Origin: Escherichia phage GEP001
DNA length: 64,000 nt
Direction: 5' to 3' (one strand)
Sequence record: PV173775
Positions 4,878 to 51,862 of the stretch are shown here, piece by piece; the stretch's first letter is position 1, and every line of letters begins with the position of its first letter. Below the pieces are notes generated by a model, which made no database searches, was not told the origin of the DNA, and was given only the letters and a program-made list of their open reading frames with translations. The translations under genes were made by a program, and so were the position numbers.

Positions 4878-5335
4878 ATCCATTTATTAATCGTTTAAAA
4901 ATGCTGAATGTTCCTTTATCTCGTGAAACTCCAGAAAGTCTTGTTCAAAAATTTAAAGCACATGGTTATAAATGCACAGAAGAAGATATTCTTGCAGAAG
5001 TTCCGGAAATTTGTTGGCAAACCGCATACTGGGATGAAAACCAAAAGTACCAACGACGGATTGTTTGCGCAGCCAACCGTTTTAAATTAAAAGATGGACG
5101 AACTCTTGTTATTCCAGGTGCTCGTCATTATTCTAAAGATATGGCAGCAGTTTTAGATGTAGTTAAACCCCAATTAGTTACTCAGCAAGTTTGTGATGAT
5201 GACCAAGGGTTTATTGACCAATATAGTAATTATTGGACACGTGAAGAAGCAATGATTATTGCAACTTACGCTGGACAAGTACGTATTGAACGCGGCGGTA
5301 GTGAAAAAGAACTTTACTCTGAGGACCTTTACTAA
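4874..5335 (+). CDS. hypothetical early protein, 153 aa
   Basis: ORF, ATGA overlap with upstream ORF. Confidence 0.7.
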
Positions 5336-35508: not shown

Positions 35509-35516
35509 TATAAATA
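35509..35516 (+). promoter_or_regulatory. late promoter TATAAATA upstream of rIII
   Basis: Exact match. Confidence 0.5.
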
Positions 35517-35655
35517 ATAATATGAATTGGGTGTCGGAATAATAAGTTAACCGAACAATTCTACGTGGTAGTCTACAACTGAGAGATCTGTCGAAAGAAG
35601 ATGAAATTCAGAAGAACGTGACTACCGAGTTTTAATCTCTAATGAGAATTTTTAA

Positions 35656-35904
35656 ATGATTAAACAATTACAACACGCTCTTGAACTGCAACGAAACGCA
35701 TGGAATAATGGTCACGAAAACTATGGCGCATCTATTGATGTTGAAGCCGAAGCTCTTGAAATCCTGCGTTATTTCAAACATCTGAATCCTGCTCAAACTG
35801 CATTAGCTGCTGAGCTTCAGGAAAAAGATGAACTTAAATATGCTAAGCCTTTGGCTTCTGCCGCACGAAAAGCAGTTCGTCACTTTGTGGTAACACTGAA
35901 GTAA
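35656..35904 (+). CDS. rIII: lysis-inhibition accessory protein RIII (82 aa)
   Basis: Size and position after gene 31. Confidence 0.85.
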   Translation: MIKQLQHALELQRNAWNNGHENYGASIDVEAEALEILRYFKHLNPAQTALAAELQEKDELKYAKPLASAARKAVRHFVVTLK

Positions 35905-35982
35905 GTATGATGACGGGTTTATGGTTATCCTGGTCGTTAAATATTCAAAAACCTATGTTCCCCTTGAGGGCTTGCGCAGGCA

Positions 35983-36201
35983 ATGCCAATAAGTCCTGCA
36001 TTTTCATTTAAAAGAGAATTTATAATGGCAAAACAAGCTAAAGCAAAGAAAGCAGTTGAAAAGAAAGTTGGTGATTCTAAACGCGCTGGTTACAAGCGTG
36101 GGTCGAACTCTCGTATCAATCAAACTGTTGAGAAGATCATGCGCCGAGCACGTGCGGTTCTTCGAGATGATGCTTCTCGTTTTGGTAAGCAGAAAGCATA
36201 A
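35983..36201 (+). CDS. small basic protein, 72 aa (alternative start at 36026 gives 58 aa)
   Basis: Lys/Arg-rich ORF followed by strong terminator hairpin. Confidence 0.5.
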   Translation: MPISPAFSFKREFIMAKQAKAKKAVEKKVGDSKRAGYKRGSNSRINQTVEKIMRRARAVLRDDASRFGKQKA

Positions 36202-36206
36202 GTTGA

Positions 36207-36234
36207 GGACTCCTTCGGGAGTCCTTTTTTATTT
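36207..36234 (+). terminator. intrinsic terminator (ggactcc-ttcg-ggagtcc plus T-run)
   Basis: Perfect 7-bp stem, UUCG loop, 10-nt T-rich tail. Confidence 0.7.
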
Positions 36235-36254
36235 TCCAAAGATTGCACAAAGTT

Positions 36255-36284
36255 GTTTACAGTATGGTTCCTTTGTGATAGTAT
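36255..36284 (+). promoter_or_regulatory. early promoter following terminator hairpin (PeSL-like)
   Basis: GTTTAC, 18-nt spacer, TAGTAT; hairpin 36207-36234 just upstream. Confidence 0.6.
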
Positions 36285-36311
36285 TATCTTACACAAACAA
36301 AGGAGAATAAA

Positions 36312-36644
36312 ATGAAAACGATTAATCTAAACGCTGCGGTTAAAACTAAATGCTTCAATGGTAAATATGATGAAACTATGTGGTTCTTAATGGCAGTTGA
36401 AGGTGATATTATTGAAGTAGAAACAACAGAAGGTATGGGAACAGATTTCACCTTTACAATTCAAGTTCATAATTTCTTTACTGGTTGGATTTATGAATTG
36501 AATACAGTAATCGTTGGAAAAATTGAACAAAATGAATCAGGTGAATGGTATTATGTTACAGCTCGCCAACGTGCCGAACGCTTAATTGAGAAGATGAAAA
36601 AAGTTGGTAAACTTGACATGCAACATTGGAAAGTAGTAAAATAA
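36312..36644 (+). CDS. hypothetical protein, 110 aa
   Basis: ORF after early promoter 36255-36284. Confidence 0.7.
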   Translation: MKTINLNAAVKTKCFNGKYDETMWFLMAVEGDIIEVETTEGMGTDFTFTIQVHNFFTGWIYELNTVIVGKIEQNESGEWYYVTARQRAERLIEKMKKVGKLDMQHWKVVK

Positions 36645-36646
36645 TT

Positions 36647-36675
36647 GTTTACTTTGGTACAGGATATGATATTAT
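36647..36675 (+). promoter_or_regulatory. early promoter (GTTTAC / TGaTATTAT)
   Basis: Consensus match. Confidence 0.6.
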
Positions 36676-36712
36676 ATACCTGTACCGCAATTAAACATCT
36701 CGGAGAATAAAA

Positions 36713-37078
36713 ATGAACTACATCAATTTTGAACGTAAATATGTTTCTAATGGTATTGCAGGTTCTATTGATACTATCTGCCTTTGGAAACATCAAAATG
36801 GATCAGTATGCGAAATTGAACAGTATATGACTCCTAACTACGTTTATATGCGATTTGAAAATGGCATCACGGTTTCAATCACGAAAGAAGGTTCTTCTTT
36901 TAAAATCGCATTAGATGATGATTTCCGTCAACGCGATTTAGGGACTCATCCTTGCTGGAATGGTGTTAATCGTAAGCTTCTGGTTAAAACTTGGATTCGT
37001 CATATTCTGAGCAACAGAGCTAAACCTGAGCATCTTGAAGCAATCTTTGATGTAGTTCTTAACGAATTTGATATTTAA
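36713..37078 (+). CDS. hypothetical protein, 121 aa
   Basis: ORF after early promoter 36647-36675. Confidence 0.7.
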   Translation: MNYINFERKYVSNGIAGSIDTICLWKHQNGSVCEIEQYMTPNYVYMRFENGITVSITKEGSSFKIALDDDFRQRDLGTHPCWNGVNRKLLVKTWIRHILSNRAKPEHLEAIFDVVLNEFDI

Positions 37079-37119
37079 AATAAAATAAGGGGCTTCGGCC
37101 CCTTACTGAGGAAAATATT

Positions 37120-37407
37120 ATGTTTATGACTACTTATTTTGATACCCGTAAAAATTTCTGTGAAGTGGTTTTCTCTAAGGCACCTAAAGGCCTTCCTGCT
37201 CATTTGCAACCTACCAGTGAATCGATTAAAAACTACGTTAATGTAGTATGTCCTTTAGAGTTCCGTACTGTAAATGGACGTGATACTCTAGCAATCATTA
37301 AACTCAATCGTGAAATTGACATTGACCCTTCAATTGCGCGTGAAATTAATATTTCTGACATTGGTGGTGGTAATGTTAAATCGCATGGTTTTCAGATGAG
37401 GTTCTAA
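37120..37407 (+). CDS. hypothetical protein, 95 aa
   Basis: ORF. Confidence 0.6.
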   Translation: MFMTTYFDTRKNFCEVVFSKAPKGLPAHLQPTSESIKNYVNVVCPLEFRTVNGRDTLAIIKLNREIDIDPSIAREINISDIGGGNVKSHGFQMRF

Positions 37408-37604
37408 TGAAATTCTTTTTGGGTCAAACTGTTGAATTAAAGGGAGTCGGTATACCTGGATTAATTTCTAAGGTTTTGCCTGCATTTAAATGGAGAGACG
37501 TTCAAATAAAAGAAGCTTATATTGTTTCCTGGGTAGATGGAAATGAAGACCTTCGTATGGGTGATGAATTATCTCCTATCTATGGATTAAAGGAATTAGT
37601 ATGA
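37407..37604 (+). CDS. hypothetical protein, 65 aa
   Basis: ORF. Confidence 0.55.
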   Translation: MKFFLGQTVELKGVGIPGLISKVLPAFKWRDVQIKEAYIVSWVDGNEDLRMGDELSPIYGLKELV

Positions 37605-37807
37605 ATATAATTAATAAGATTTTTGGAATTCAGTACATTAAGGTCACATATAAAGTAACATATAAAGGTCCGTATACCGATGAACATGAAGAACCACAAG
37701 TTATGTCTATTATATTAGAAAAGGACCCTAACTGGCCAGTTGAATTTCGTCTTCCTTGCTATGGTCATTGGGCTGATGTTGAAATTATAAGTATTGAAAA
37801 TGTCTGA
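37601..37807 (+). CDS. hypothetical protein, 68 aa
   Basis: ORF. Confidence 0.55.
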   Translation: MNIINKIFGIQYIKVTYKVTYKGPYTDEHEEPQVMSIILEKDPNWPVEFRLPCYGHWADVEIISIENV

Positions 37808-38258
37808 GCTAGAAATAAGAAGCAATTTTAGATGGCCATCATGTGCATTAAGCAATTTCGCCCAATGGCCTTTCGTTATGGATGGTATCCAATTTGGAGG
37901 TCTCGAAGGATTCCTCCAAGGATGTAAGGTGAAAAATGTTGAACAGCAAAGACGTATATTTGGGTTATCCGGGCTTGCCGCCCAACAAGCTGGAAGGTCT
38001 TATGCTAGAGCTCAGGACCGTGGCACGTTGTTCTGGCTTGGAACTCCGTTTTCAAGATATTCCGAAGCATGGAAAGAATTATACACAAATGCATATTTTG
38101 AAGCAGCGATCCAAAACAGGGGTTTTCGTGATGCATTACAAGCCTCGAAAGGAAAAGTTTTGAAGCACAGCATGGCTAGTGGTCTAACAAAAGATGATAC
38201 AATACTAACCGAAGCTGAATTTATTGATGTGTTAAACCTATTAAGAGACTCTCTATGA
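37794..38258 (+). CDS. NADAR/YbiA-like (DUF1768) protein, 154 aa (30.3-like)
   Basis: Pattern LSNF...PF..DG..F...E...Q..K resembling NADAR family; no search run. Confidence 0.5.
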   Translation: MKMSELEIRSNFRWPSCALSNFAQWPFVMDGIQFGGLEGFLQGCKVKNVEQQRRIFGLSGLAAQQAGRSYARAQDRGTLFWLGTPFSRYSEAWKELYTNAYFEAAIQNRGFRDALQASKGKVLKHSMASGLTKDDTILTEAEFIDVLNLLRDSL

Positions 38259-39094
38259 AGCCAACTATTTTAACTGATATTGATGGAGTTTGTTTAAGCT
38301 GGCAATCAGGCCTTCCTTATTTTGCTCAAAAATATAATCTTCCATTAGAACATATTTTAAAAATGATCCAAGATGAGAAATTTATTTCTCCAGGTAAACT
38401 CTTTAATTGTGACGAAGAACTTGGCGTCAAGTTAATTGAAAAATACAATCGTTCAGATTTTATTCGTTACTTGTCTCCGTATAAAGATGCCCTGTGTGTA
38501 ATTAACAAATTAAAAGAAGATTATAATTTTGTAGCTGTTACAGCATTGGGTGATTCTATTGACGCTCTGTTGAATCGTCAATTTAATTTGAATGCTCTTT
38601 TTCCCGGTGCCTTCTCAGAAGTAATGATGTGTGGTCATGATTCTTCAAAAGAAGAGCTGTTCAAAAAGGCAAAAGAGAAATATAACGTAATTTGTTATAT
38701 TGACGATCTCGCTCATCACTGCGATCATGCGAGTGAAATATTAAATGTTCCTGTTTATTGGATGGCTCGAGGAGAGCGTGACAATATTCCAAAAACTGCA
38801 CAGCGAGTTTATACATGGAATGATGTAGAAAATAAGCTTTTTTCGCCGAAGGAAAATAAAGAAAGTTTTGATAGTGAAAAAGCTATAAAAGATTTAATTG
38901 AGAAGATGGTTAAAAACGATTCTTTTCCTTGGAACACTACCTGGAGAACGCCTGGATTTAATCCTTATAATCATCTATATCATCCATATCAGACACATCC
39001 GTTTCAGACATGGAACTATATTAAACCTGGTGGCATAGAGTATTTGTATAATAGACCTACTTGTGGTGATAATATTTTCCAAGGAGCATTCTAA
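38255..39094 (+). CDS. HAD-superfamily hydrolase-like protein, 279 aa (30.2-like)
   Basis: N-terminal DxDGV motif (TDIDGV). Confidence 0.6.
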   Translation: MKPTILTDIDGVCLSWQSGLPYFAQKYNLPLEHILKMIQDEKFISPGKLFNCDEELGVKLIEKYNRSDFIRYLSPYKDALCVINKLKEDYNFVAVTALGDSIDALLNRQFNLNALFPGAFSEVMMCGHDSSKEELFKKAKEKYNVICYIDDLAHHCDHASEILNVPVYWMARGERDNIPKTAQRVYTWNDVENKLFSPKENKESFDSEKAIKDLIEKMVKNDSFPWNTTWRTPGFNPYNHLYHPYQTHPFQTWNYIKPGGIEYLYNRPTCGDNIFQGAF

Positions 39095-39363
39095 TGTTTG
39101 TTGTTCACACTATTTATGAAAATGAAGGTAATACTACACGTGATTATGGTCACGTAAATCAATTTTTTAGATGCAATCCAGAATTCCGAGCTCAAAAAGA
39201 CGAACGAATTTTTAAAAAATGTGTAGAGCAAGGTTTCATTTACGTCAAGCACTGGATGCAAGGAAATAAAGTTAGAACTACATATCATAAGTCTTTGCCT
39301 GAGCTTAATGATGAATTGATTTATAATAGAGCTGTAAATCAAACTCTGAAGGATGAACAATGA
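39094..39363 (+). CDS. hypothetical protein, 89 aa
   Basis: ORF coupled to gene 30. Confidence 0.6.
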   Translation: MFVVHTIYENEGNTTRDYGHVNQFFRCNPEFRAQKDERIFKKCVEQGFIYVKHWMQGNKVRTTYHKSLPELNDELIYNRAVNQTLKDEQ

Positions 39364-40820
39364 TTCTTAAAATTCTGAATGAAATAGCATCTATTGGATC
39401 AACTAAGCAGAAGCAAGCAATTCTTGAAAAGAATAAAGATAATGAATTGCTTAAACGAGTATATCGTCTGACTTATTCTCGTGGGTTACAGTATTATATC
39501 AAGAAATGGCCTAAACCTGGTATTGCTACCCAGAGTTTTGGAATGCTGACTATTACCGATATGCTTGACTTCATTGAATTCACGTTAGCTACTCGGAAAT
39601 TGACTGGAAATGCAGCAATTGAGGAATTAACTGGATATATCACTGACGGTAAAAAGGATGATGTTGAAGTTTTACGTCGAGTTATGATGCGAGACCTTGA
39701 ATGCGGTGCTTCAGTATCTATTGCAAACAAAGTTTGGCCAGGTTTAATTCCTGAACAACCTCAAATGCTGGCAAGTTCTTATGATGAAAAAGGCATTAGT
39801 AAGAATATCAAGTTTCCAGCTTTTGCGCAGTTAAAAGCAGATGGAGCTCGGTGTTTTGCTGAAGTTAGAGGTGATGAATTAGATGATGTTCGTCTTTTAT
39901 CACGAGCTGGCAATGAATATCTAGGATTAGATCTTCTTAAGGAAGAGTTAATCAAAATGACTGCTGAAGCCCGCCAGATTCATCCAGAAGGTGTGTTAAT
40001 TGATGGCGAATTGGTATACCATGAGCAAGTTGAAAAGGAACCAGAAGGCCTAGATTTTCTTTTTGATGCTCCTGAAATCAGTAAAGCTAAAGAGTTTGCC
40101 GAAGTAGCTGAATCTCGTACTGCTTCTAATGGAATCGCCAATAAATCTTTAAAGGGAACTATTTCAGAAAAAGAAGCCAAATGCATGAAGTTTCAGGTCT
40201 GGGATTATGTTCCGTTGGTAGAAATATACGGTCTTCCGGCGTTTCGTTTAAAATATGATGTACGTTTTTCTAAACTAGAACAAATGACATCAGGATATGA
40301 TAAAGTAATTTTAATTGAAAACCAGCTAGTAAATAACCTAGATGAAGCTAAGGTAATTTATAAAAAGTATATTGACCAAGGTCTTGAAGGTATTATTCTC
40401 AAAAATACCGATGGATTGTGGGAAAATGCTCGTTCAAAAAATCTCTATAAATTTAAAGAAGTAATTGATGTTGATTTAAAAATTGTAGGAATTTATCCTC
40501 ACCGTAAAGACCCTACTAAAGCAGGTGGATTTATTCTTGAATCAGAGTGTGGAAAAATTAAAGTAAATGCAGGTTCAGGCTTAAAAGATAAAGCTGGTGT
40601 AAAATCACATGAACTTGACCGTACTCGCATTATGGAAAACCAAAATTATTATATTGGAAAAATTCTAGAGTGCGAATGCAACGGTTGGTTAAAATCTGAT
40701 GGCCGCACTGATTACGTTAAATTATTTCTTCCGATTGCGATTCGTTTACGTGAAGATAAAACTAAAGCTAATACATTCGAGGATGTATTTGGTGATTTTC
40801 ATGAGGTAACTGGTCTATGA
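39360..40820 (+). CDS. 30: ATP-dependent DNA ligase gp30 (486 aa)
   Basis: Adenylation motif KADGAR; size matches T4 ligase. Confidence 0.95.
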   Translation: MILKILNEIASIGSTKQKQAILEKNKDNELLKRVYRLTYSRGLQYYIKKWPKPGIATQSFGMLTITDMLDFIEFTLATRKLTGNAAIEELTGYITDGKKDDVEVLRRVMMRDLECGASVSIANKVWPGLIPEQPQMLASSYDEKGISKNIKFPAFAQLKADGARCFAEVRGDELDDVRLLSRAGNEYLGLDLLKEELIKMTAEARQIHPEGVLIDGELVYHEQVEKEPEGLDFLFDAPEISKAKEFAEVAESRTASNGIANKSLKGTISEKEAKCMKFQVWDYVPLVEIYGLPAFRLKYDVRFSKLEQMTSGYDKVILIENQLVNNLDEAKVIYKKYIDQGLEGIILKNTDGLWENARSKNLYKFKEVIDVDLKIVGIYPHRKDPTKAGGFILESECGKIKVNAGSGLKDKAGVKSHELDRTRIMENQNYYIGKILECECNGWLKSDGRTDYVKLFLPIAIRLREDKTKANTFEDVFGDFHEVTGL

Positions 40821-41005
40821 AAGCTTACTTAGAAACAATTGTTATAGCTCAAAAAGAAGGTGGAGATGTTTCTACTTCTGTATCACAAGTCATTCTCGAA
40901 TTTGTAGATGCATATGCTTATAATAAATTTACAGAAACATTTGATGCCTATGAAAAAGGGCCAAAGTTTGAAATATATCGTACTCTCTTACCATTAGATT
41001 ATTAA
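40817..41005 (+). CDS. hypothetical protein, 62 aa
   Basis: ORF. Confidence 0.55.
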   Translation: MKAYLETIVIAQKEGGDVSTSVSQVILEFVDAYAYNKFTETFDAYEKGPKFEIYRTLLPLDY

Positions 41006-41026
41006 AGGCCTTCGGGCCTTTAATTT

Positions 41027-41034
41027 TATAAATA
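41027..41034 (+). promoter_or_regulatory. late promoter TATAAATA for alt
   Basis: Exact match 21 nt upstream of alt start; alt is a late packaged protein. Confidence 0.7.
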
Positions 41035-41057
41035 GAATAAACACTAGAGAGGATATG

Positions 41058-43151
41058 ATGGAACTCATTACAGAATTATTTGACGAAGATACTACTCTTC
41101 CGATTACAAACTTAAATCCAAAGAAGAAAATACCGCAAATTTTTTCAGTTCATGTTGATGACGCAATTGAACAACCAGGCTTTCGTTTATGTACCTATAC
41201 ATCTGGAGGTGATACTAACCGTGATTTAAAGATGGGCGATAAAATGATGCATATTGTTCCTTTTACATTAACTGCTAAAGGTTCAATTGCTAAATTAAAA
41301 GGTCTCGGTCCAAGCCCAATTAATTACATCAATTCAGTTTTTACTGTTGCAATGCAGACGATGCGCCAGTATAAAATTGATGCCTGTATGCTTCGTATTC
41401 TTAAGTCTAAAACTGCTGGTCAAGCTCGACAAATTCAAGTTATTGCTGATAGACTTATCCGTAGTCGTTCAGGCGGCAGATACGTCCTTCTTAAGGAACT
41501 CTGGGATTACGATAAAAAGTATGCATATATTCTTATACATCGCAAAAATGTATCACTAGAAGACATTCCAGGAGTTCCAGAAATTAGTACCGAGCTCTTT
41601 ACTAAAGTTGAATCGAAGGTCGGCGATGTTTATATCAATAAAGATACTGGAGCTCAAGTAACTAAAAATGAGGCAATTGCAGCATCTATTGCGCAAGAAA
41701 ATGATAAACGTTCTGACCAAGCTGTAATCGTTAAAGTTAAAATTTCCCGTAGAGCAATTGCACAAAGTCAGTCATTGGAATCTTCTAGATTTGAAAGTGA
41801 ATTATTCCAGAAATATGAATCTACCGCAGCTAATTTCAATAAACCTGCTACAGCTCCTTTAATTCCCGAAGCAGAAGAAATGAAGCTTGGAATTAATTCA
41901 TTAGCTTCTAAAACTAAGGCAGCAAAAATTATTGCCGAAGGAACCGCAGATGAACTTCACTATGACTATAAATTCTTTTCAAAAAGTGATGTTAATGAAG
42001 TTTCTGAAAAAATTAAAGATGTAATTCTTAATGCGATTAAAAATGAACCAACTACTTCAATAAAATGTTTAGAGAAGTATGCAGCAGCTATTAATAAATT
42101 CTTTGAAGAATATAAAGATACTTGGCTTGATAAACATAATAAAACTCGTAAAGGGCAGCCAGATGAAGTCTGGGAAGAAATAACTAAAAATTCCTGGAAC
42201 GCAGCAAAAACTAAATTCCTCAAACGAATGATTTATAGCTTTTCTGGAATTGGTGCAGGTCCAATGATTGATATTACTATTGCCCGTGATGGTTCTAAAT
42301 ATACTCCATCACAAAAGCGCGGCATTAGAGAGTATTGTGGTTCAGGATATACTGACATCAATAATCTTCTTTTGGGTCGTTACAATCCAGAACGATATGA
42401 TGTAATGAGTGAAAAAGAAATTGAATCTGCGATAAATAATTTAGATTCAGCTTTTGAAAATGGTGACCGTATACCAGAAGGCATTACAGTTTATCGTGCT
42501 CAAAGTATGACTGCTCCTATATACGAAGCGCTAGTTAAAAATAAAGTGTTCTATTTCAGAAATTTTGTATCTACTTCTTTAACTCCTATCATTTTTGGAC
42601 GTTTTGGAATTACACATGCTGGTATCGGTCTTTTAGAACCAGAAGCTCGTAATGAATTAACAGTTGATAAAAATGAAGAAGGAATAACTATTAATCCAAA
42701 CGAAATAAGAGCGTATAAAGAAAATCCTGAATACGTTAAAGTTCAAATAGGATGGGCAATTGATGGAGCTCATAAAGTTAATGTTGTATATCCAGGAAGT
42801 CTCGGAATAGCAACAGAAGCTGAAGTAATTCTACCACGCGGATTGATGGTCAAAGTTAATAAAATAACTGATGCTTCTAATAATGACGGAACAACATCTA
42901 ATAATACAAAACTCATTCAAGCTGAAGTTATGACTACGGAAGAACTCACCGAATCAGTCATTTATGACGGTGACCGTCTAATGGAAACCGGCGAAGTAGT
43001 TGCAATGACAGGTGATATTGAAATAGAAGACAGAGTTGACTTTGCATCATTTGTTTCATCAAATGTTAAACAGAAAGCAGAATCATCTCTCGGAATTATT
43101 GCGTCTTGCATAGATATTACAAACATGCCTTACAAGTTCGTTCAAGGATAA
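41058..43151 (+). CDS. alt: capsid-packaged ADP-ribosyltransferase Alt (697 aa)
   Basis: N-terminus MELITELFDEDTTLPITNL and body match recalled T4 Alt; R/STS/EAE-type motifs (YRAQ, FVSTSL, EAEVIL); late promoter upstream. Confidence 0.9.
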   Translation: MELITELFDEDTTLPITNLNPKKKIPQIFSVHVDDAIEQPGFRLCTYTSGGDTNRDLKMGDKMMHIVPFTLTAKGSIAKLKGLGPSPINYINSVFTVAMQTMRQYKIDACMLRILKSKTAGQARQIQVIADRLIRSRSGGRYVLLKELWDYDKKYAYILIHRKNVSLEDIPGVPEISTELFTKVESKVGDVYINKDTGAQVTKNEAIAASIAQENDKRSDQAVIVKVKISRRAIAQSQSLESSRFESELFQKYESTAANFNKPATAPLIPEAEEMKLGINSLASKTKAAKIIAEGTADELHYDYKFFSKSDVNEVSEKIKDVILNAIKNEPTTSIKCLEKYAAAINKFFEEYKDTWLDKHNKTRKGQPDEVWEEITKNSWNAAKTKFLKRMIYSFSGIGAGPMIDITIARDGSKYTPSQKRGIREYCGSGYTDINNLLLGRYNPERYDVMSEKEIESAINNLDSAFENGDRIPEGITVYRAQSMTAPIYEALVKNKVFYFRNFVSTSLTPIIFGRFGITHAGIGLLEPEARNELTVDKNEEGITINPNEIRAYKENPEYVKVQIGWAIDGAHKVNVVYPGSLGIATEAEVILPRGLMVKVNKITDASNNDGTTSNNTKLIQAEVMTTEELTESVIYDGDRLMETGEVVAMTGDIEIEDRVDFASFVSSNVKQKAESSLGIIASCIDITNMPYKFVQG

Positions 43152-43154
43152 ATC

Positions 43155-45212
43155 ATGGAACTTATTACAGAATTATTTGACGGCGCTTCGGCGCCGGTTG
43201 TTAACTTAAATCCTAAGCATAAAATACCTCAAATTTTTGCTATTCAAGCCGGTGAAGAAAGCGTGCTTCCTGGATTTAGATTTTGTACATACACCTCTGG
43301 CGGTGATACAAATAAAAACGTTAAGCCAGGCGATAAAATGATGCATATCGTAATGATAGGTGTTAATGAGAAACTATCATTAGTTAAACTTAAAAACTTA
43401 GGTGGAAATCCAATTGGTGTCATTAATGCGGTTTTTGATACTGCTCTTCAGACAATGAAACAGTACAAAATTGACGCATGCTTATTCCGCGTACTAAAGA
43501 GTAAAACAAATGGCGCAGCTCGACAAATTCAAGTTATTGCTGACCGTTTAGTACGTACTAAAGGAGCAGGTCGATATGTTCTTTTAAAAGAAATCTGGGA
43601 TTACGATAAAAAGTACGCATATATTATGGTTTACCGTAAAAATGCTAATTTAGAAGACATTCCAGGTGTACCTCCTATTTCAACTGAGTTATTCACAAAA
43701 GTTGAATCAAAGGTTGGTGATGTTTATGTAGATGTTAAAACAGGTAATGCTGTTCCTAAAGCTGTTGCTGTTGCTGCTTCTATTGCTTTAGAAAATGATA
43801 AGCGCACGGATCAAGCTGTTATTCAGAAAACTAAAATTAGTCGTCGATTAGCAGCACAAGCTCAATACTCTACTGTCGATGCTTCACTTCAGGGTGATAG
43901 CTTCGCTGCTAAGAAATATCAAGAGTTTGAATCTAAAGTTCCGGTATATAAAGCAGAAGGACCAATGAACTCCGGCGTTATTCAGGTTGGTTCAAACTTC
44001 AGCAAAGGAGCTATCGGTGGTATGAGAAGTGCTTCTCGTTTTAAATCTAATGATTATGAACTAGAAAGCTTCCGAAATCATATTGCATTGGCTCATGCAC
44101 GTTTACGTGATCCATCTATCAAGTTACAGAGCGATATAACATATCAAGGTTCTCAAGAATATTTAAAGAATAAAGAATTTTTTGATTATAAAACTGATAA
44201 AATTTTAAGCGATCTTGCTGACATTAATATTTCTAATAGCTTTGATGTTATTAAGAAAATTGTCAATGATTTAGTTAAAGGTTCTAAAGCCACACCAGAT
44301 GAAAAGGTAGCTATTGTTCAATTTGTCATGAATGGCATTTATAAATTGATTAATGAGTCTGCTTCTCAAGCGTATGAATATGCAAGTACTGAAGTACCCC
44401 CAAAAGGATTAACTCAAGCTGAGTCTGATGTAATTGAAGATTATTGCGCAGATTCATATGTTGAAATGAACTCGTTCCTTTTAGGTAAACCAGATTCTAC
44501 TCGTGAAGAATATATGGAACGAGCTATTAAACACATCGAGACAATGGATTCTGCTTTTGCCAAAGGATCAGTTCTTCCTCCAGGAACTACGCTTTACCGT
44601 GGCCAAGAAGTTACCTTTAAAACTTTACGTCATAATATTGAAAATAAAATGTTCTATTTTAAGAACTTCGTATCCACATCGCTTAAACCAAATATCTTCG
44701 GTGAGTATGGTAAAAACTATATGGCCCTAGATGATTCCGGCACAGTATTTTCTGGTGAAGGAGAAGGTTCAGTTGATGCTGAAGATTTGATGCATATGGG
44801 CAGTCATTCTGCGTATGCCAATGAAGATGCTGAAACTAGCGTTGGTATGGTAATTAAAGGAGCTGAGCGAATCAAAGTTATCGTTCCAGGTCATTTATCA
44901 GGATTTCCATCAGAAGCTGAAGTTATTTTACCGCGTGGAATTTTGCTGAAGATTAATAAAGTGAGTACGTACATGATGAAAGAAACTGCTTATAACAAGT
45001 ATCTAATCGAAGGCACAATCGTTCCTCCTTCTGAACAATTAGAAGAATCGGTATATGATGGTGACCATCTGATGGAAACTGGTGAAGTTCGTCCAATGAC
45101 TGGATTTAACCAATTCCTTGTAGAAGAATCAAAAGAAGAGGAAAACGAAGTTTCTCAAATCTTGGCTTCTTTGGTTAACATCAACGGAATGTCTAAAAAG
45201 TTCAAGATGTAG
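43155..45212 (+). CDS. second Alt-like ADP-ribosyltransferase paralogue (685 aa) with divergent central region
   Basis: Shares Alt N-terminal region and C-terminal catalytic motifs (YRGQ, FVSTSL, EAEVIL) but central ~250 aa differ. Confidence 0.8.
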   Translation: MELITELFDGASAPVVNLNPKHKIPQIFAIQAGEESVLPGFRFCTYTSGGDTNKNVKPGDKMMHIVMIGVNEKLSLVKLKNLGGNPIGVINAVFDTALQTMKQYKIDACLFRVLKSKTNGAARQIQVIADRLVRTKGAGRYVLLKEIWDYDKKYAYIMVYRKNANLEDIPGVPPISTELFTKVESKVGDVYVDVKTGNAVPKAVAVAASIALENDKRTDQAVIQKTKISRRLAAQAQYSTVDASLQGDSFAAKKYQEFESKVPVYKAEGPMNSGVIQVGSNFSKGAIGGMRSASRFKSNDYELESFRNHIALAHARLRDPSIKLQSDITYQGSQEYLKNKEFFDYKTDKILSDLADINISNSFDVIKKIVNDLVKGSKATPDEKVAIVQFVMNGIYKLINESASQAYEYASTEVPPKGLTQAESDVIEDYCADSYVEMNSFLLGKPDSTREEYMERAIKHIETMDSAFAKGSVLPPGTTLYRGQEVTFKTLRHNIENKMFYFKNFVSTSLKPNIFGEYGKNYMALDDSGTVFSGEGEGSVDAEDLMHMGSHSAYANEDAETSVGMVIKGAERIKVIVPGHLSGFPSEAEVILPRGILLKINKVSTYMMKETAYNKYLIEGTIVPPSEQLEESVYDGDHLMETGEVRPMTGFNQFLVEESKEEENEVSQILASLVNINGMSKKFKM

Positions 45213-45265
45213 TTTACAAGTCCCTCGTGTTGTGTTATAGTAATTTTACTTACATAACATGAGGA
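45212..45265 (+). promoter_or_regulatory. early promoter cassette (copy of 29538-29591)
   Basis: 31 nt identical to 29538-29568 plus similar leader and GAGGA site. Confidence 0.6.
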
Positions 45266-45272
45266 ACACAAA

Positions 45273-45563
45273 ATGAAATCTTCTTTGCGCTTTTTAGGTC
45301 AAGAACTTGTAGTTGAAGGCGTTATTCCTGCTGATAATGCTTTTAATGAAGCAGTTTATGATGAATTTATCAAAATTTTTGGAACAGATAAAAAGTTTGG
45401 AATTTTTCCTTCTGAAAATTTTTCAAAGCCACAGCAGACTGAAAGCATTTTCCAAGGTGTAGTAACAGGTAAATTTGAGTCAGAAGCTCCGGTAAAAATT
45501 GAAGTTTATATTGAAGACAGTTTAGTTGCTTCAGTTGCTGCTTTTATTTCATTCCGTAAATAA
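45273..45563 (+). CDS. hypothetical protein, 96 aa
   Basis: ORF after early promoter cassette 45212-45265; terminator hairpin downstream. Confidence 0.7.
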   Translation: MKSSLRFLGQELVVEGVIPADNAFNEAVYDEFIKIFGTDKKFGIFPSENFSKPQQTESIFQGVVTGKFESEAPVKIEVYIEDSLVASVAAFISFRK

Positions 45564-45569
45564 AAATAT

Positions 45570-45597
45570 GGGGACCGAAAGGTCCCCATTGTTTTAT
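45570..45597. terminator. bidirectional terminator hairpin between convergent ORF 45273-45563 and gene 54
   Basis: ggggacc-gaaa-ggtcccc flanked by A-run and T-run. Confidence 0.65.
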
Positions 45598-46559
45598 ATT
45601 GCTCCTAATATTTTACTTTGCGAGTTGACAATTCCCGTCATAGTATTAATGTTTGAAATGCTTCCAGCAGTTCCTCCTAATCTACTAAGTCGTGAAAGCG
45701 AATTAGATAGTCCAGTAACGCCTCCGCTATTTCCGAGAACGCTTTGAATGCCATTTATAGCAGCAGATTCAAGCCACTCAAGCGCAGCTTGTCTATCAAC
45801 TGCTCCAGCCTGCATAACTCTATACGCAAAAGTAACATCAAATGTAGTTATTTGGTTATCTCCATCATATGATAACTCAGGAGCGCTCACTGACACTGGA
45901 ATGCATCCGGTGAACATCACTGCAGTATGAGGTAATCCATTACGAGCATGAAGATTAACTTGAATATCTGCCTCGACATCTTGTGGTAAAGCACGCAGTC
46001 CAGTTACTGGGTCTTGAACAGAGTTAACCCAGTCTTGCATTGCACGATAGTTACATGCTTCTGAATCCATTCTAAATGAAATAACCAAAGGGTCTAATTC
46101 TCTCCCAGTTATACGAATATTAGGAGAATTATAGTTCCAGTCAGTTTCATAGGATAATCTATTCTCTGGCATTTTTACAGAATATATCATCAATCCAGAT
46201 GAGTTATATGCCATGTTAAAGAAGTCAATTAAATATGTACCAACTGTAAATGAGCCCAATAAACTTTGAACTGTACGTTGACTCATGGCACCAATAAGAT
46301 ATTTACTAACCCCTGATTTTCTTATCAGTTTTTGTGTGCCAGCTGTAATTAGCGTGGTAATTCCCTGATTAATATCGCCTTGAGTCAATCCTAACCAATC
46401 TGAATTTAGACCCAAGTTATTATAAGAAAAGTTGCTAATTGAACTTATCAACGAAGAGCTTTTAGTTGATGGAGTTGTCGCAAAAACGCAGCTAAACATA
46501 TTATTACGTTGGAAATCTGCGTTTATTGCTTGATTATTAAATTCCTCTAAAGAATACAT
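45594..46559 (-). CDS. 54: baseplate tail-tube initiator gp54 (321 aa)
   Basis: Size and position in baseplate hub cluster. Confidence 0.9.
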   Translation of the reverse strand: MYSLEEFNNQAINADFQRNNMFSCVFATTPSTKSSSLISSISNFSYNNLGLNSDWLGLTQGDINQGITTLITAGTQKLIRKSGVSKYLIGAMSQRTVQSLLGSFTVGTYLIDFFNMAYNSSGLMIYSVKMPENRLSYETDWNYNSPNIRITGRELDPLVISFRMDSEACNYRAMQDWVNSVQDPVTGLRALPQDVEADIQVNLHARNGLPHTAVMFTGCIPVSVSAPELSYDGDNQITTFDVTFAYRVMQAGAVDRQAALEWLESAAINGIQSVLGNSGGVTGLSNSLSRLSRLGGTAGSISNINTMTGIVNSQSKILGAI

Positions 46560-47653
46560 TAAAAAGTCCCCGCATATAAAGAAGCACGGTTTAACGTGAT
46601 AATTTCTCTCATAGTAATCTCAAGAGTAAATGTACTAGGGAGGTTTGGAGCAATAGCTAATCCGTTAAAGTTACCATTAGGTGTTTTATCAAATCTGATG
46701 CTCTGTATTTGGCATGGGCCAAATATTTCCGTTTTTCCATCAAACTTAGATGTTGCACCAAAGTTTTTCACCATCCAAATTGTCGGGTTTGAAACTACTA
46801 GAACGTTAGTTAAACTCGATGTCATTTTCTCAAATAGTGTTTTATTTTTAGCTGCGTCTTCCGGAGATAAAGGTTCAATTAACGTAGAACGATACCAATC
46901 ATCTAAATACCCCTTTATTTCAGCAGCATATTGAGATTTGCCAGTTTCACCATAAGAAAAATAGTTAAAATATTGATAGATATTAATAATAGCCATCAAA
47001 TCTTCTGTTGAACGTGGAGTCAAATCCCATGTAAACACTTTAGTTCTATTCTCAGCACCACCATACATACTTCTGGCTGTCGTATAAATCTGTTCATTAT
47101 TATCAGCCATTATACCTTGTGTTATACTTTCCAGTGCCCCAAATACTGCAGTTGAAGCAATATTACTTAGCACACCAGTAGCAGTACCTCCGCCTCTGCT
47201 GATAAGACTTTCTTGAACATCATTAAATCTATGTGATGATGTATCAACATCAGATTTAGATCTCGGTAAAAGAATGTTTGCGACAGGGGCTTTACTTATT
47301 GTTCCTGAATTATTATCTGATATTAATCCATTTGACAGTTTTGATACTGTATTACTGATAGTGTTTCTGGCTGTACGTAAAATACTCGAAGATGAAGAAG
47401 AGTAGTTAGATCTCATCGATCTAAGACTTCCAGAATCCCTAGATGACATATTGTATGCAGTAAATAATAATCCATTCTTATATAGATCTGTTACCTGGAA
47501 GTCCCCTGTAGTGTCATTACCACTAGCACGCCCAGTTGGAAACTGGGCAGTGTATGTTTTAGTTGCTACTTCTGATTTAGTACTCTGTCCGGCTGAAATT
47601 TTCTCACCGGACTTTTTAATTAAATCAGCAGTTATTTCTTTAACAATTGCCAT
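46559..47653 (-). CDS. 48: baseplate tail-tube cap gp48 (364 aa)
   Basis: Size identical to T4 gp48; position. Confidence 0.9.
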   Translation of the reverse strand: MAIVKEITADLIKKSGEKISAGQSTKSEVATKTYTAQFPTGRASGNDTTGDFQVTDLYKNGLLFTAYNMSSRDSGSLRSMRSNYSSSSSSILRTARNTISNTVSKLSNGLISDNNSGTISKAPVANILLPRSKSDVDTSSHRFNDVQESLISRGGGTATGVLSNIASTAVFGALESITQGIMADNNEQIYTTARSMYGGAENRTKVFTWDLTPRSTEDLMAIINIYQYFNYFSYGETGKSQYAAEIKGYLDDWYRSTLIEPLSPEDAAKNKTLFEKMTSSLTNVLVVSNPTIWMVKNFGATSKFDGKTEIFGPCQIQSIRFDKTPNGNFNGLAIAPNLPSTFTLEITMREIITLNRASLYAGTF

Positions 47654-47661
47654 ATTATTCC

Positions 47662-49434
47662 TTAATTAACTCCTGTCGCGTCAAATACACCGGGAGCAGT
47701 TGTACTCGTAACAGGTGTCATATTATGAACGACAGTATTTTTCTTAATAACATTATTAGTATTATTGATCGAAGGAGATGCTTGTTGAACAGGAGCTTGT
47801 TGTGCTTTGTTCTTTTCTATTACCTGGACTTGTTTTGCTTCTGGCGATTTAGCAGAAGTTTCAGGTTTGGCATTAGGCTGATTTTTCTTGAGCTCTTGAT
47901 AAGTAGCATCAATTTTAGAAAATCTAGCAGCAAGTTCTTTTTTAACTGCCGGTGAATTATTTAAATCCGGGTCATCCATCCGTTTTTTAAGGTCTTCATA
48001 GGCAGCTTCAACTGATTTAACTGTTGAGTCTTTACTCATGTCAGCTGAATCAGCATATTTTTCAAAGCGAATCATCGCGGCGCGCGCTTCATTAGCCTTC
48101 ATTAAAGCATTTTTTCTTTCTTCAGGTGAAAGTTGCTTTAATTTTTCTTCTTCTGCTGCACGTTCTTCGTCGGTAGTTAGTGCTTCTTTATTATCAACTC
48201 CACGAATCCAGTTAGATGCACGAGTTTTCCAATTAGCAATTTTATCTAATCCTTTTGCTATCGGACCAAGGTCTCCGTTCATTCGTTTATCTTGATAATT
48301 TGCAACTTTTTCCTGGTCTTCTTTATTGAGAGATGCTCCAGTAGAATTTTGGAAATTTTCTAGTGCTCTTCCTTCTACTTCATCAGCGGTATCCTTCATG
48401 CCAGGAATGACTCGAAGAATTGCAGCAGATAATTTAGCCATTCCAAGCTGAATAAGTTCTCCTAAATTATAAAGAACCTTTCCAAGCCCTTCTACAATAG
48501 CTACCGTCAAACCGCCCCAATCTCCCTCTTCCCAGAATTTTTTAATTTCATCAATAGAACTAAAGATGCTCTGTAATAAAGGACCCCATGTTCCGGTTTC
48601 GCTAGAGAATTTAGTAAAGTTTGAACTAAACAAATCCCAAGCCTGCGAAAATTTATCTGACCAATATTTAAAGTGAACCATCAGCAGATCTATTCCAACA
48701 ACAACAGCCAATATCATTGCAGTCATTTTAGCGGCTTCAATAGCAGCACTGACGGTGTACTTAAATAACATGCTTGATATTTTATCAGTAATTGAAATGG
48801 ACTTCTTAAATCCAAAATCAACAGTCTTCGTTAATTTATCTAAAGCTTGAGATAATTTTAAGTTAAATGCGTCTTTTTTCTGTTTTTCTTCTGGTGATTC
48901 TTGTTTGGGTTCAACTGGCTGAGGGGTAGGGAAAAAATCAGCATCAGGATCATTATTAACTGCTTCAGGAGCCGGTAATAAAGGACCCACAGATTCAGCT
49001 GTATCATCCTCAACAACTTTAACAGGAATAGCGCTTTCAACCGTGGCTAAACTGGTTCCTGTTTGTTGAATTCCAGCTGTCTGAATTTTTTGCTCTAGTA
49101 AACTTGTTAATTTATCTAATTTGCTCCCGAGTGATTCACCGATTTCTTTATTAATATTGTTGCCAATTTCAACAGTTTCAGCAATTAACTCAGAACCGGC
49201 AGTAGTATCACTCACTGCGTTTTCTACGTTGTCAATTGCTCCAATTATTTCATTCGATTTTTCTTCGACAGTTTGAGCAATTAATTCAGAAGCAGCTTGA
49301 GCATCATCCAATTTCGTAGATATATCGTTAAGTCCAGATAAAGTGTTAGAAGCGGATTTAGCCGCTTCCTGTGTTGGTTTATTATCTGAAATAACTTTTC
49401 TACGCATCGTTTGCATTTCTTGTGGCTTTTTCAT
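47662..49434 (-). CDS. 29: tail length tape-measure / baseplate hub protein gp29 (590 aa)
   Basis: Size identical to T4 gp29; position. Confidence 0.9.
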   Translation of the reverse strand: MKKPQEMQTMRRKVISDNKPTQEAAKSASNTLSGLNDISTKLDDAQAASELIAQTVEEKSNEIIGAIDNVENAVSDTTAGSELIAETVEIGNNINKEIGESLGSKLDKLTSLLEQKIQTAGIQQTGTSLATVESAIPVKVVEDDTAESVGPLLPAPEAVNNDPDADFFPTPQPVEPKQESPEEKQKKDAFNLKLSQALDKLTKTVDFGFKKSISITDKISSMLFKYTVSAAIEAAKMTAMILAVVVGIDLLMVHFKYWSDKFSQAWDLFSSNFTKFSSETGTWGPLLQSIFSSIDEIKKFWEEGDWGGLTVAIVEGLGKVLYNLGELIQLGMAKLSAAILRVIPGMKDTADEVEGRALENFQNSTGASLNKEDQEKVANYQDKRMNGDLGPIAKGLDKIANWKTRASNWIRGVDNKEALTTDEERAAEEEKLKQLSPEERKNALMKANEARAAMIRFEKYADSADMSKDSTVKSVEAAYEDLKKRMDDPDLNNSPAVKKELAARFSKIDATYQELKKNQPNAKPETSAKSPEAKQVQVIEKNKAQQAPVQQASPSINNTNNVIKKNTVVHNMTPVTSTTAPGVFDATGVN

Positions 49435-49964
49435 TCAAATAATCCAATAATATTGCCAATTCCGGTTATTGGACCATTAGGGCCAGGAATTGCTAAAGTT
49501 GTAAAAATATCATTTGCCCATTTTAAAACGAATGCTGGCATCTCAAGAAAATTAATTTCTTTAACTTCATCATTGACCTTAAGCAAGCATTTGGATAACA
49601 TATCGCTCACAGTTAAAAATTGTTCAAATTTTCCAGGCGGTCTAAAATAAAATGTATTTCCTTGGTATTGAAATTCCAATCTTTGGCATACATAAACATC
49701 ATTAATGTCATAAGTATAACCATCTATTTCTTTGCGAGATTTAATCTTTCCATTAAATTCCAATAAATGAATAGAAACGAAATCAACTTCTGCCGGTGAT
49801 AAATTTGGACAAATAGAATCGATCAAAAGTTTTAAATTTTCATCAGGACCTTTAACATCTTTTAAAATGTTATAATGTTTAAGACCCATTTTAGGAATAG
49901 AAACTTCTTTATTGCTTATTGGAAGAACTACTTTCTTCAGTGGTAGTATCAGATTTAAATTCAT
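49431..49964 (-). CDS. 28: baseplate hub distal subunit gp28 (177 aa)
   Basis: Size and position. Confidence 0.85.
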
Positions 49965-51084
49965 TTTTAACCTTAACTGGGTCTATTGTTTCCAGTTTCG
50001 TTGCATTAGTGAACATATATAGATGAGTTACTGAATTATTATTGGATAATTCATGGATGACTTCATCAACGTAAAATTCTGTTTTAAATTGGTTTTTACT
50101 ATCATTAAAAATAATTTTAACGCCAGGTGTCAAGTTAAAATTACCGACAGTAGAACATTTAGCATAGCCATCGTATTGTGCCATAGTTTGAAGACGAATA
50201 GCTTCTTCATATCCATTCCTATAAGTCATTTCAGAATAAGCACCTGACCTTGACACTACAATAGAGTTTTCGCCTTTTCCTGTAGTAATCATTGGCAATG
50301 AAGAATCTAAAAATGAATGCGCGTAGATAGTAGCGTTTTTCATTGGGTCGCGTTTGTGAGGATTCGATTTAGTCAACCAAACGAAATCATACGCTAATGG
50401 ATATTTTAATTCTTGGATGAATTGACCTATTAAAGATGGCTCACCGACAATCATTGGATAGGGTTCTTGATTTATCATCATATCATAGTCCATCATGTTA
50501 ACTCCCATGATGTCTTGCCATACAAATACAAATTTGTCACTTCCTACAGCTAGAGCAACTTCTCTAACATATGACAAATAGTTTTCAAATGTGCTAGTCC
50601 ACGGAATATCAGGAACATAAGCATTTATAGCATTTATTGCTGGAGTTAATAACGTGCGATCCTGATAAATGACACCAAGCATTTCCTTTATAGATTCACC
50701 TGCATCAGAGAAAAACGGTCTGCCAAATTTAAGATTTTCTATAGAATGAATAGTTCCCAATTCAATAGCAATGATGTTATCACCCTTTGAATCTACTGAC
50801 ACGGAAAAATGCTTACATCCATAAATTCTTGTTTTAACATTATTAATATCGTTTGCATTAGCTACAGAAATCTGAATTATTTCATTTCCATCCATTTTTG
50901 TATGGATGTTTTTAGAATCATAAAACTGCAGCATTCCTTCATTTCGGCCATAAAGAGAATCCCGCATAGTTAATGTGGTAATAGTAGCAGCTAATTCAAC
51001 AAATCTATTATTACTCCAAGCGTCGTAGCTATCAAACAATTTAACGCTGAGATTTGGATATCCTGGGCGTTGCAACATACTCAT
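49909..51084 (-). CDS. 27: baseplate hub subunit gp27 (391 aa)
   Basis: Size identical to T4 gp27. Confidence 0.9.
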
Positions 51085-51833
51085 TATTGTTTATCCTTCT
51101 CAATCAGTTTTAATACGAATCCGCGCTCGGCAGGAATCATTTTCATTATTGAATTTAAACTATAATTACTTTTTACGAGTGTGTGATTAATTTGATAAAA
51201 AGTAAATATCTCATCTGGGTTAACTAATAGCTTAAACACATCTACTATATCAGTGTATTTTTTTACATACTTATCACAGCATGACATGTGTAGCGTTAAA
51301 TTAATAGGATTCATTGCATCGAGAATTTTTTCTAATGTTTCTATCTCGATGGCGTCAACAAGTTCTATTTGACTTGATTCACTAATTTCCTTCCAATCAT
51401 ACCATGTTTCATCTACTTGAACAGAATGAATATTTTCAGTAATCATCTTTGCTTTATTTTCATAAAACTCAGAAGGAAACTTTAATTTAATTTTAACATT
51501 AGCTACATCAAAAACAGGTTCCTTTAGTTCTTTTTGATATATTTCAAATGGAACTGTCTTTTCTTTTTTACATTTTGGACATACAAATGTGACCGGTACT
51601 TTAGTTTTACCTATTGACCCTACAAATACCTGCAAAAATATAAATGGTTGCCAAGTCTTCGGATAGTCTCCAAAATAATCAGCAATTAAATCAGCAATTA
51701 TTTCTTTTTGTTCTTGTGGTGACCGATGTTCTATATCGTTTCGAACTAACAAAAAATCTCGATAATCTTCTACCGTAAATGGTTTAAAACGATGAACACC
51801 ATCTGGTAATTTACAACGAATAATGTTTGCCAT
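51084..51833 (-). CDS. 51: baseplate hub assembly catalyst gp51 (249 aa)
   Basis: Size identical to T4 gp51; late promoter upstream. Confidence 0.9.
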
Positions 51834-51850
51834 AGATGCTCCTTTTATTC

Positions 51851-51862
51851 TATTTATAAATA
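51851..51862. promoter_or_regulatory. overlapping divergent late promoters: TATAAATA on - strand (gene 51) and + strand (gene 26) within TATTTATAAATA
   Basis: Palindromic-like 12-mer in the 51/26 divergent intergenic region. Confidence 0.65.

Follow-up and report, generated by a model that had tools for sequence, protein, structure and literature searches.

The locus described here raises a simple question: what use does a T-even phage have for a second alt gene placed immediately behind the first? We have analyzed it in a window of 64,000 nt from Escherichia phage GEP001 (PV173775), a T-even segment of the Tequatrovirus type; "the window" means this whole stretch. The first copy, alt (41058-43151, + strand), encodes 697 aa, is of the T2/T6 type and matches PF03496 with 129.5 bits. 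An earlier sequence-only reading had noticed a tandem Alt paralogue of 685 aa directly after it, and this description holds. The ORF at 43155-45212 (+ strand; ATG start, 685 aa plus stop), which we name alt2 here, encodes a protein that aligns with the alt product over its full length at 41% identity (BLASTP, E 3e-160) and matches PHROG 802 (phrog_802), again over its full length, with E 4.5e-255. As a sequence finding alt2 is ordinary. Hundreds of public records contain it, and from these and the literature it is already known where the gene lies, to which family it belongs and how it is related to the T4 ORFs alt.-1 and alt.-2; this last link was published in 2006.

Gene order and expression signals of the alt unit

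The alt2 locus lies between gene 30 (DNA ligase gp30, 39360-40820, + strand) and gene 54, reads toward gene 54 and has a late promoter upstream. Gene 30 is followed by an alt.1-type ORF (40817-41005, + strand; 62 aa, Pfam Phage_blade), after which come alt and alt2, with only 3 nt separating the stop codon of alt from the ATG of alt2. The unit ends with a homologue of alt.-3 (45273-45563, + strand; 96 aa), assigned by DUF5498, phrog_1739 and synteny. Genes 54 (45594-46559) and 48 (46559-47653) are both on the - strand and are convergent with the alt unit.

As read from the sequence, AAAGGCC-TTCG-GGCCTTT (41004-41021, + strand) forms a terminator-like hairpin with a T-rich run behind it. This hairpin closes the upstream early unit of gene 30 and alt.1, immediately ahead of the late promoter of alt. 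Five of six T4-like genomes have been described as sharing a conserved terminator in front of alt (Nolan 2006, PMC1524935). The late promoter itself is predicted from the T4 late-promoter consensus: a pattern search placed the box TATAAATA at 41027-41034 (+ strand), 24 nt upstream of the alt start, and found no second exact copy on the + strand from 35509 to 51855. Reading on from this promoter, one meets nothing terminator-like on the + strand before 45568, where a bidirectional intrinsic terminator (45568-45589) lies between alt.-3 (+) and gene 54 (-). The Shine-Dalgarno sequence of alt2, a weak AAGGA, lies within the end of alt. Because there is a single late box, no terminator between the two genes, so short a gap and so weak a Shine-Dalgarno sequence, the simplest reading is that alt2 is co-transcribed with alt from the 41027 promoter, and its translation may be coupled to that of alt. 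The absence of a separate promoter had been claimed for alt2, and it indeed has no late promoter of its own, the only exact box being that at 41027. An early-type sigma-70 promoter directly 3' of the alt2 stop codon ((G)TTTACA-17-TGTTATAGT, 45213-45241, + strand; matching at 10 of 12 positions, with an extended -10) probably serves the alt.-3 homologue.

Domain layout, predicted processing and catalytic site

Identity between the alt and alt2 proteins is unevenly distributed. In 30-residue sliding windows it amounts to 50-83% over aa 1-235, to 4-20% in the middle and to 30-55% in the ADP-ribosyltransferase (ART) domain. The motifs that had been listed as common to the N-terminal regions (MELITELFD, NLNPK.KIPQIF, CTYTSGGDTN and GDKMMHIV) were all found, as were the C-terminal signatures LYRGQ, FVSTSL (44667-44684) and EAEVILPRG. 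The centre is unrelated at sequence and profile level, as had been proposed, but it is shorter than the ~250 residues then estimated and comprises ~180 aa (236-415).

The Alt-family N-terminal alpha/beta domain (aa 7-235; 43173-43859, + strand) is basic (pI 9.7) and ~68% identical to that of alt; it also shares 68% identity with the N-domain of T4 Alt. Its assignment to PF26846 comes by way of the precomputed annotation of the cluster representative P0001, which is 98% identical to the alt2 ORF. A search of NCBIfam with the alt and alt2 proteins gave no match. We also considered a MuF-fused or polyvalent-protein phage ART and rejected it, as Pfam shows only PF03496 in alt2; Alt has been placed outside the polyvalent proteins (Iyer et al. 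2017, PMC5512222).

Both ends of the protein carry motifs of the prohead protease gp21. T4 Alt is cut by this protease at ITE-6 (PMC5694885), a cleavage that is also noted in GenBank record X15811, and a second time at LTE-619, which takes 63 residues off the C-terminus (Ali et al. 2017, PMC5694885). In alt2 the first six codons, MELITE (43155-43172, + strand), form a predicted N-terminal propeptide that ends in the gp21 motif I4-T5-E6, and E6 is invariant among 42 family members. At the other end L629-E630-E631 (45039-45047, + strand) aligns with the LTE-619 motif of T4 Alt; E631 is invariant in the family, L629 is conserved in at least 90%, and the C-terminal LxE cleavage motif of the Alt family lies ~55-65 residues before the C-terminus. 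The segment beyond it (aa 632-685; 45048-45209, + strand), the predicted C-terminal propeptide, keeps the SVYDGDxLMETGE motif together with F651, F654, K682 and F683. It is of low confidence or disordered in the structural model, as expected for a propeptide. By analogy with T4 Alt, gp21 would trim alt2 after E6 and after E631, leaving a predicted mature protein of residues 7-631 and 69.1 kDa.

The ART domain, of the R-S-ExE class (aa 416-631; 44400-45047, + strand), was delimited from PF03496, the family alignment and Foldseek. PF03496 (ADPrib_exo_Tox) scores 72.8 bits on aa 414-620 of alt2, against a cut-off of 23.4. The catalytic residues R482 (44598-44600, in LYRGQ), S507-T508-S509 (44673-44681) and E587-A-E589 (44913-44921), all on the + strand, are invariant in the 42-sequence family alignment and align with R480, S505-T-S507 and E587-A-E589 of alt. 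The sequence-only reading had spoken of an intact second ADP-ribosyltransferase and had made its case depend on the alignment of these residues; alt2 proved to be a full-length paralogue with its R-S-ExE site whole. Enzymes of the C3/VIP2 class in which the last motif reads ExE are the arginine-specific ones. Between STS and ExE, a loop at about aa 514-565 is poorly conserved and cannot be aligned with alt.

An AlphaFold2 (AF2) model of alt2 built on the 42-sequence alignment has a mean pLDDT of 77, with the ART domain mostly at 75-93. It is divided into an alpha/beta module (~12-235), an all-helical module (~240-410), the ART module (~415-625) and a low-confidence tail (630-685). Fold prediction had been recommended as a check, and in this model the C-terminal part adopts the R-S-E ART fold. 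The best PDB matches of the ART model in Foldseek are Vis, C3bot, Certhrax, CDTa and VIP2, all of the R-S-E class, with E 2.4e-7 and TMt 0.62 for Vis (4xzk) and TMt 0.64 for C3bot (2c89). A sequence search of the PDB with alt2 returned only Vis, at E 0.79, and therefore no Alt structure has been solved.

The middle region, selection and loss of alt2

The divergent middle (aa 236-415; 43860-44399, + strand) is predicted to be all-helical, with pLDDT 80-93. Profile-profile comparison (hhalign) with the middle of alt gave a probability of 0.1-0.6%, that is, no detectable similarity. Nothing was found at E <= 1e-3 when aa 236-415 were compared exhaustively by phmmer with 1.84 billion cluster representatives, so that no source of the alt2 middle can be recognised beyond the family. 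Within the family, 119 full-length homologues share 41-100% identity in the N-domain and 33-65% in the ART domain; their middle regions comprise ~8 types, with 10-33% mutual identity, which belong to at least three sequence-unrelated classes. Class A middles occur in alt2 and in the JS10-type and KM16-type proteins (hhalign probability within the class 96-100%). Class B unites T4 alt, the alt of the window (T2/T6 type) and the P0016-type (98-99.5%), and P0017 is a singleton, to which a within-class probability does not apply. Between classes A and B the hhalign probability is again 0.1-0.6%. The cluster to which alt2 itself belongs is represented by a protein with another centre.

The first gene, alt, is biallelic in its centre. 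The alt of the window is 100% identical to T4 Alt in the N-domain, but in the middle their identity falls to 11-35%; at the DNA level, 95% identity with T4 breaks off abruptly at 41864, and so sharp a break points to a cassette-like recombination. The T2/T6 type of centre is found in 320 records and the T4 type in 176. Since the centre varies among orthologous alt genes as well, a divergent centre is a trait of the whole family and is not specific to alt2. The middles of alt and alt2 are nevertheless both all-helical in the AF2 models and ~175-180 aa long, and in BFVD both models are collinear with one and the same group of full-length Alt homologues. The TM-score of the alt model is low (0.36-0.39) because of a poorly predicted inter-domain hinge, and the cross-correlation of helix patterns between the two middles is weak (r at most 0.26). 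Judged from these models, the two middles could be one fold diverged past recognition, and if they share a fold, their divergence need not imply a different target.

Selection on alt2 was estimated as dN/dS (Nei-Gojobori) from five orthologues, those of the window, NBG2, T6, T2 and RB51, all of which have 685 codons without stops. The mean is 0.050 at dS 0.21, compared with 0.059 for alt, and by module it is 0.024 for the N-domain, 0.10 for the middle, 0.042 for the ART domain and 0.027 for the tail. This is purifying selection, and alt2 is therefore a functional gene; its interpretation as a pseudogene or a chance ORF was rejected on the same values.

The gene is widespread. Megablast of alt2 against 50,697 phage records matched 497; in 401 of them the match covers at least 80% of the gene, with 94-98% DNA identity, and the best one reaches 97.9% in DNA and 99.4% in protein. 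Carriers include T2, T6, RB51, RB10, RB33 and ime09 (where the gene is named alt.-2), and in RefSeq both copies bear the same name, "Alt-like RNA polymerase ADP-ribosyltransferase". At 90% identity the alt2 protein cluster has 772 member sequences, and across phages in general the Alt family turns up in 1,222 records, where a genome often has it at 2-3 places. N-terminal DNA of alt is present in 499 records; set against the 401 intact alt2 genes, this indicates that ~80% of Tequatrovirus genomes carry alt2 whole.

The remaining ~20%, T4 among them, have lost the gene through at least two independent deletions, so that alt2 must be dispensable, at least on laboratory hosts. T4 had been described as having one alt with small ORFs behind it, and its genome bears this out. 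It retains only nt 1-348 of alt2, the rest having been removed by a deletion of 1,690 bp (1.69 kb) between the imperfect 9-nt repeats CTAAAGAGT (43494) and CTAAAAAGT (45193), and the loss of 1 nt from an A-run (window 43311-43319) splits this remnant into alt.-1 and alt.-2. The alt.-1 product (61 aa, phrog_23015) corresponds to residues 1-56 of alt2 (E 2e-40) and that of alt.-2 (67 aa, phrog_15247) to residues 62-117 (E 3e-38), and both PHROG families match alt2 better than alt. A comparison with these two ORFs had been called for, and by sequence both are the frameshifted, decayed 5' remnant of alt2. They had already been called paralogous duplications of alt, in a work that also reports a full-length alt duplicate in phage 44RR (Nolan et al. 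2006, PMC1524935). Phage sutha has lost alt2 separately, by a deletion between AAGTTCGTTCAA (43134) and AAGTTCGTCCAA (45085). A linkage between the T4-type alt centre and the loss of alt2 was considered and rejected: G4507 and phiC600P9 combine a 682-aa T4-type alt with an intact alt2, and the 401 intact alt2 genes outnumber the 320 T2/T6-type centres.

Proposed role and comparison with known systems

We put at about 0.6 the probability that alt2 encodes an arginine-specific mono-ART which is expressed late, packaged in the head, processed by gp21 and injected, and whose substrate range is unlike that of alt. The gene is an old paralogue of alt. On the model of T4 Alt, its product would be made late on the alt mRNA, enter the prohead core by way of its conserved N-domain and terminal propeptides, be trimmed there by gp21 and reach the next host together with the injected DNA, where it would ADP-ribosylate host proteins on arginine. 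Packaging is suggested because the N-domain and the two gp21 motifs are conserved. A different target is suggested because the helical middle and the STS-ExE loop are divergent; these share nothing recognisable with alt, and the substrate range is probably different.

The same family membership, the arginine-type ExE, the predicted expression and processing signals and the common RefSeq name would also suit a redundant second dose of Alt, which would deliver more injected enzyme to the same main target, Arg265 of the RNA polymerase alpha subunit, and T4 grows well on alt alone. We regard this as unlikely, since identity between the ART domains is no more than 30-55% and the middles are unrelated in sequence. 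Moreover, the alt and alt2 lineages have been distinct since before the split between Tequatrovirus and Dhakavirus and both are under strong purifying selection, a pattern that fits subfunctionalised paralogues, whereas copies kept for dosage tend toward homogenisation or loss. An enzyme that is active but unpackaged, working late in the producing cell on, for example, host, defence or phage proteins, would agree with the late-promoter context and has precedents in T4 ModA and ModB, ARTs of the Alt clade that act unpackaged (PMC5512222). No functional or proteomic study of a second Alt copy, virion proteomics included, came up in the literature searched, which is also compatible with such a role. 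That role seems to us quite improbable, however, as it would hardly explain the constraint on the Alt-specific N-domain (68% identity; dN/dS 0.024), on the gp21 motifs and on the tail (0.027). That alt2 is a decaying duplicate without function in this phage is very hard to believe. At least two losses, in the T4 lineage and in sutha, could be cited for it, but the gene has 685 codons without stops or frameshifts, a dN/dS of 0.05 at dS 0.21, invariant catalytic residues and 401 full-length copies among phages.

The packaged enzyme with its own substrates allows a broader, more tentative proposal, which we consider possible though doubtful. The T-even Alts may be modular effectors delivered by the virion, in which the N-domain and ART core are constant and an exchangeable helical cassette sets the target; alt2, with its class A cassette, might then act on a host protein that T4 Alt leaves untouched, such as a factor in defence or translation. 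If this is true, the loss of alt2 in T4 hid an activity from model-phage work for 50 years. Nearly all knowledge of injected ADP-ribosyltransferases comes from T4, which lost alt2. T2, T6 and many therapeutic isolates of Tequatrovirus probably inject two Alt enzymes, and some dhakaviruses three. Should alt2 have targets of its own, host takeover by these phages departs from the T4 textbook account and the label "RNA polymerase ADP-ribosyltransferase" is misleading.

The closest known system is T4 Alt itself (gpAlt, NAD+--arginine ADP-ribosyltransferase, UniProt P12726), which belongs like alt2 to PHROG 802, lies at the same gene 30-gene 54 locus and has a late promoter. The layout is also the same, with an ITE propeptide, an alpha/beta N-domain, a helical middle, an R-S-ExE ART and a propeptide behind LxE. 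T4 Alt is present in ~40 copies per head and loses its N-terminal peptide to gp21 (PMC9958956), and it modifies Arg265 of RNA polymerase alpha together with other proteins (PMC2988021). In contrast, alt2 is only ~41% identical to the 682-aa T4-type Alts, has a middle of 180 aa with no similarity detected and an STS-ExE loop that cannot be aligned with that of Alt, and is second in its operon. The targets of T4 Alt cannot be assumed for alt2, and in view of the divergence of the middle and of the loop on the substrate side, carrying the name of T4 Alt over to alt2 seems uncertain.

More distant relatives are the C3, VIP2, iota-CDTa and Vis toxins, which share with alt2 the ART fold, the catalytic R, STS and ExE at 15-21% identity. 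Unlike alt2, they have no Alt N-domain, no helical middle and no propeptides for a prohead protease, and their delivery depends on secretion or on binary-toxin pores, not on a phage head. The true counterparts of alt2 are found in other phages with a tandem. In T2, T6, RB51, ime09, NBG2 and ~400 second copies of Tequatrovirus, orthologues of 685 aa occupy the same position and differ from the alt2 of the window by point substitutions only. The arrangement extends to a second genus: Dhakavirus JS10 has an Alt of 707 aa (YP_002922542) in second position of the same tandem, with the same 3-nt gap, whose identity to alt2 is 48% in the middle (hhalign 100%), 56% in the ART domain and 47% overall. 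Dhakavirus MX01 has this tandem too, with a third copy inserted between the two.

Loss of alt2 in T4 and phage sutha

The small T4 ORFs alt.-1 and alt.-2 are derived from alt2, the second, paralogous copy of alt. T4 (locus L002, 4001-4386) carries two lesions of alt2: a single nucleotide is deleted within an A-run (window 43311-43319), and 1,690 bp are deleted between two imperfect direct repeats of 9 nt each, CTAAAGAGT at window 43494-43502 and CTAAAAAGT at 45193-45201. The loss of alt2 in phage sutha was an independent event. The sutha deletion (locus L003, about 5001-5015) lies between 12-nt near-repeats, AAGTTCGT[T/C]CAA, one at the 3' end of each gene (alt, window 43134-43145; alt2, 45085-45096), and leaves a 39-codon alt2 fragment that is annotated as 'Alt-like'.

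Divergent and conserved regions of the Alt proteins

Across Tequatrovirus, the first alt gene has two alleles of its middle (window 41865-42293), with 320 records of one type, which includes the window, T2 and T6, and 176 of the other, to which T4 belongs. The two types share only 11-35% protein identity between flanks that are 95-100% identical, and DNA identity ends sharply at 41864, on entering this region; the pattern looks like a cassette exchange. Because the middle differs in type, target data from T4 Alt may not be transferable even to the first alt of the window.

The C-terminal tails of alt (aa 633-697) and alt2 (aa 632-685, window 45048-45209) are predicted to be disordered and are presumably removed by the prohead protease gp21. 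Nevertheless, the motif SV(I)YDGDxLMETGE is invariant in both tails, F..F and KF residues are conserved, and dN/dS for the tail is 0.027, which suggests that the tail has a separate role, for example in targeting, tethering or auto-inhibition. The role of the Alt tail is a question left standing by Ali et al. 2017 (PMC5694885).

Neighbouring genes

Upstream of alt lies a 62-aa ORF (window 40817-41005; Pfam PF24647 'Phage_blade', phrog_1976), which RB51 and JS10 annotations call alt.1. It shares 4 nt (ATGA) with the ligase gene at the ligase stop codon, and between it and alt come first a stem-loop, then the late promoter of alt. The T6 RefSeq label of this ORF, 'siderophore-interacting protein', looks like an annotation error. 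Downstream, the alt.-3 homologue (96 aa, DUF5498; window 45213-45563 with its promoter) has a separate, strong promoter of the early type, GTTTACA-17-TGTTATAGT, immediately 3' of the alt2 stop codon. Wild-type T4 Alt.-3 has no known function; T4 mutants whose Alt.-3 is extended at the C-terminus evade CmdTAC defence (PMC11618068).

Copy number of alt in other phages

'Split' Alt genes of Acinetobacter phages are found in BFVD. Tandem alt paralogues occur in the dhakaviruses, as two copies in JS10 (locus L007, 2913-7124) and three in MX01 (locus L008, 1364-7624), each spaced by 3 nt; these arrays show that the alt array is old and that its copy number varies across Tevenvirinae.
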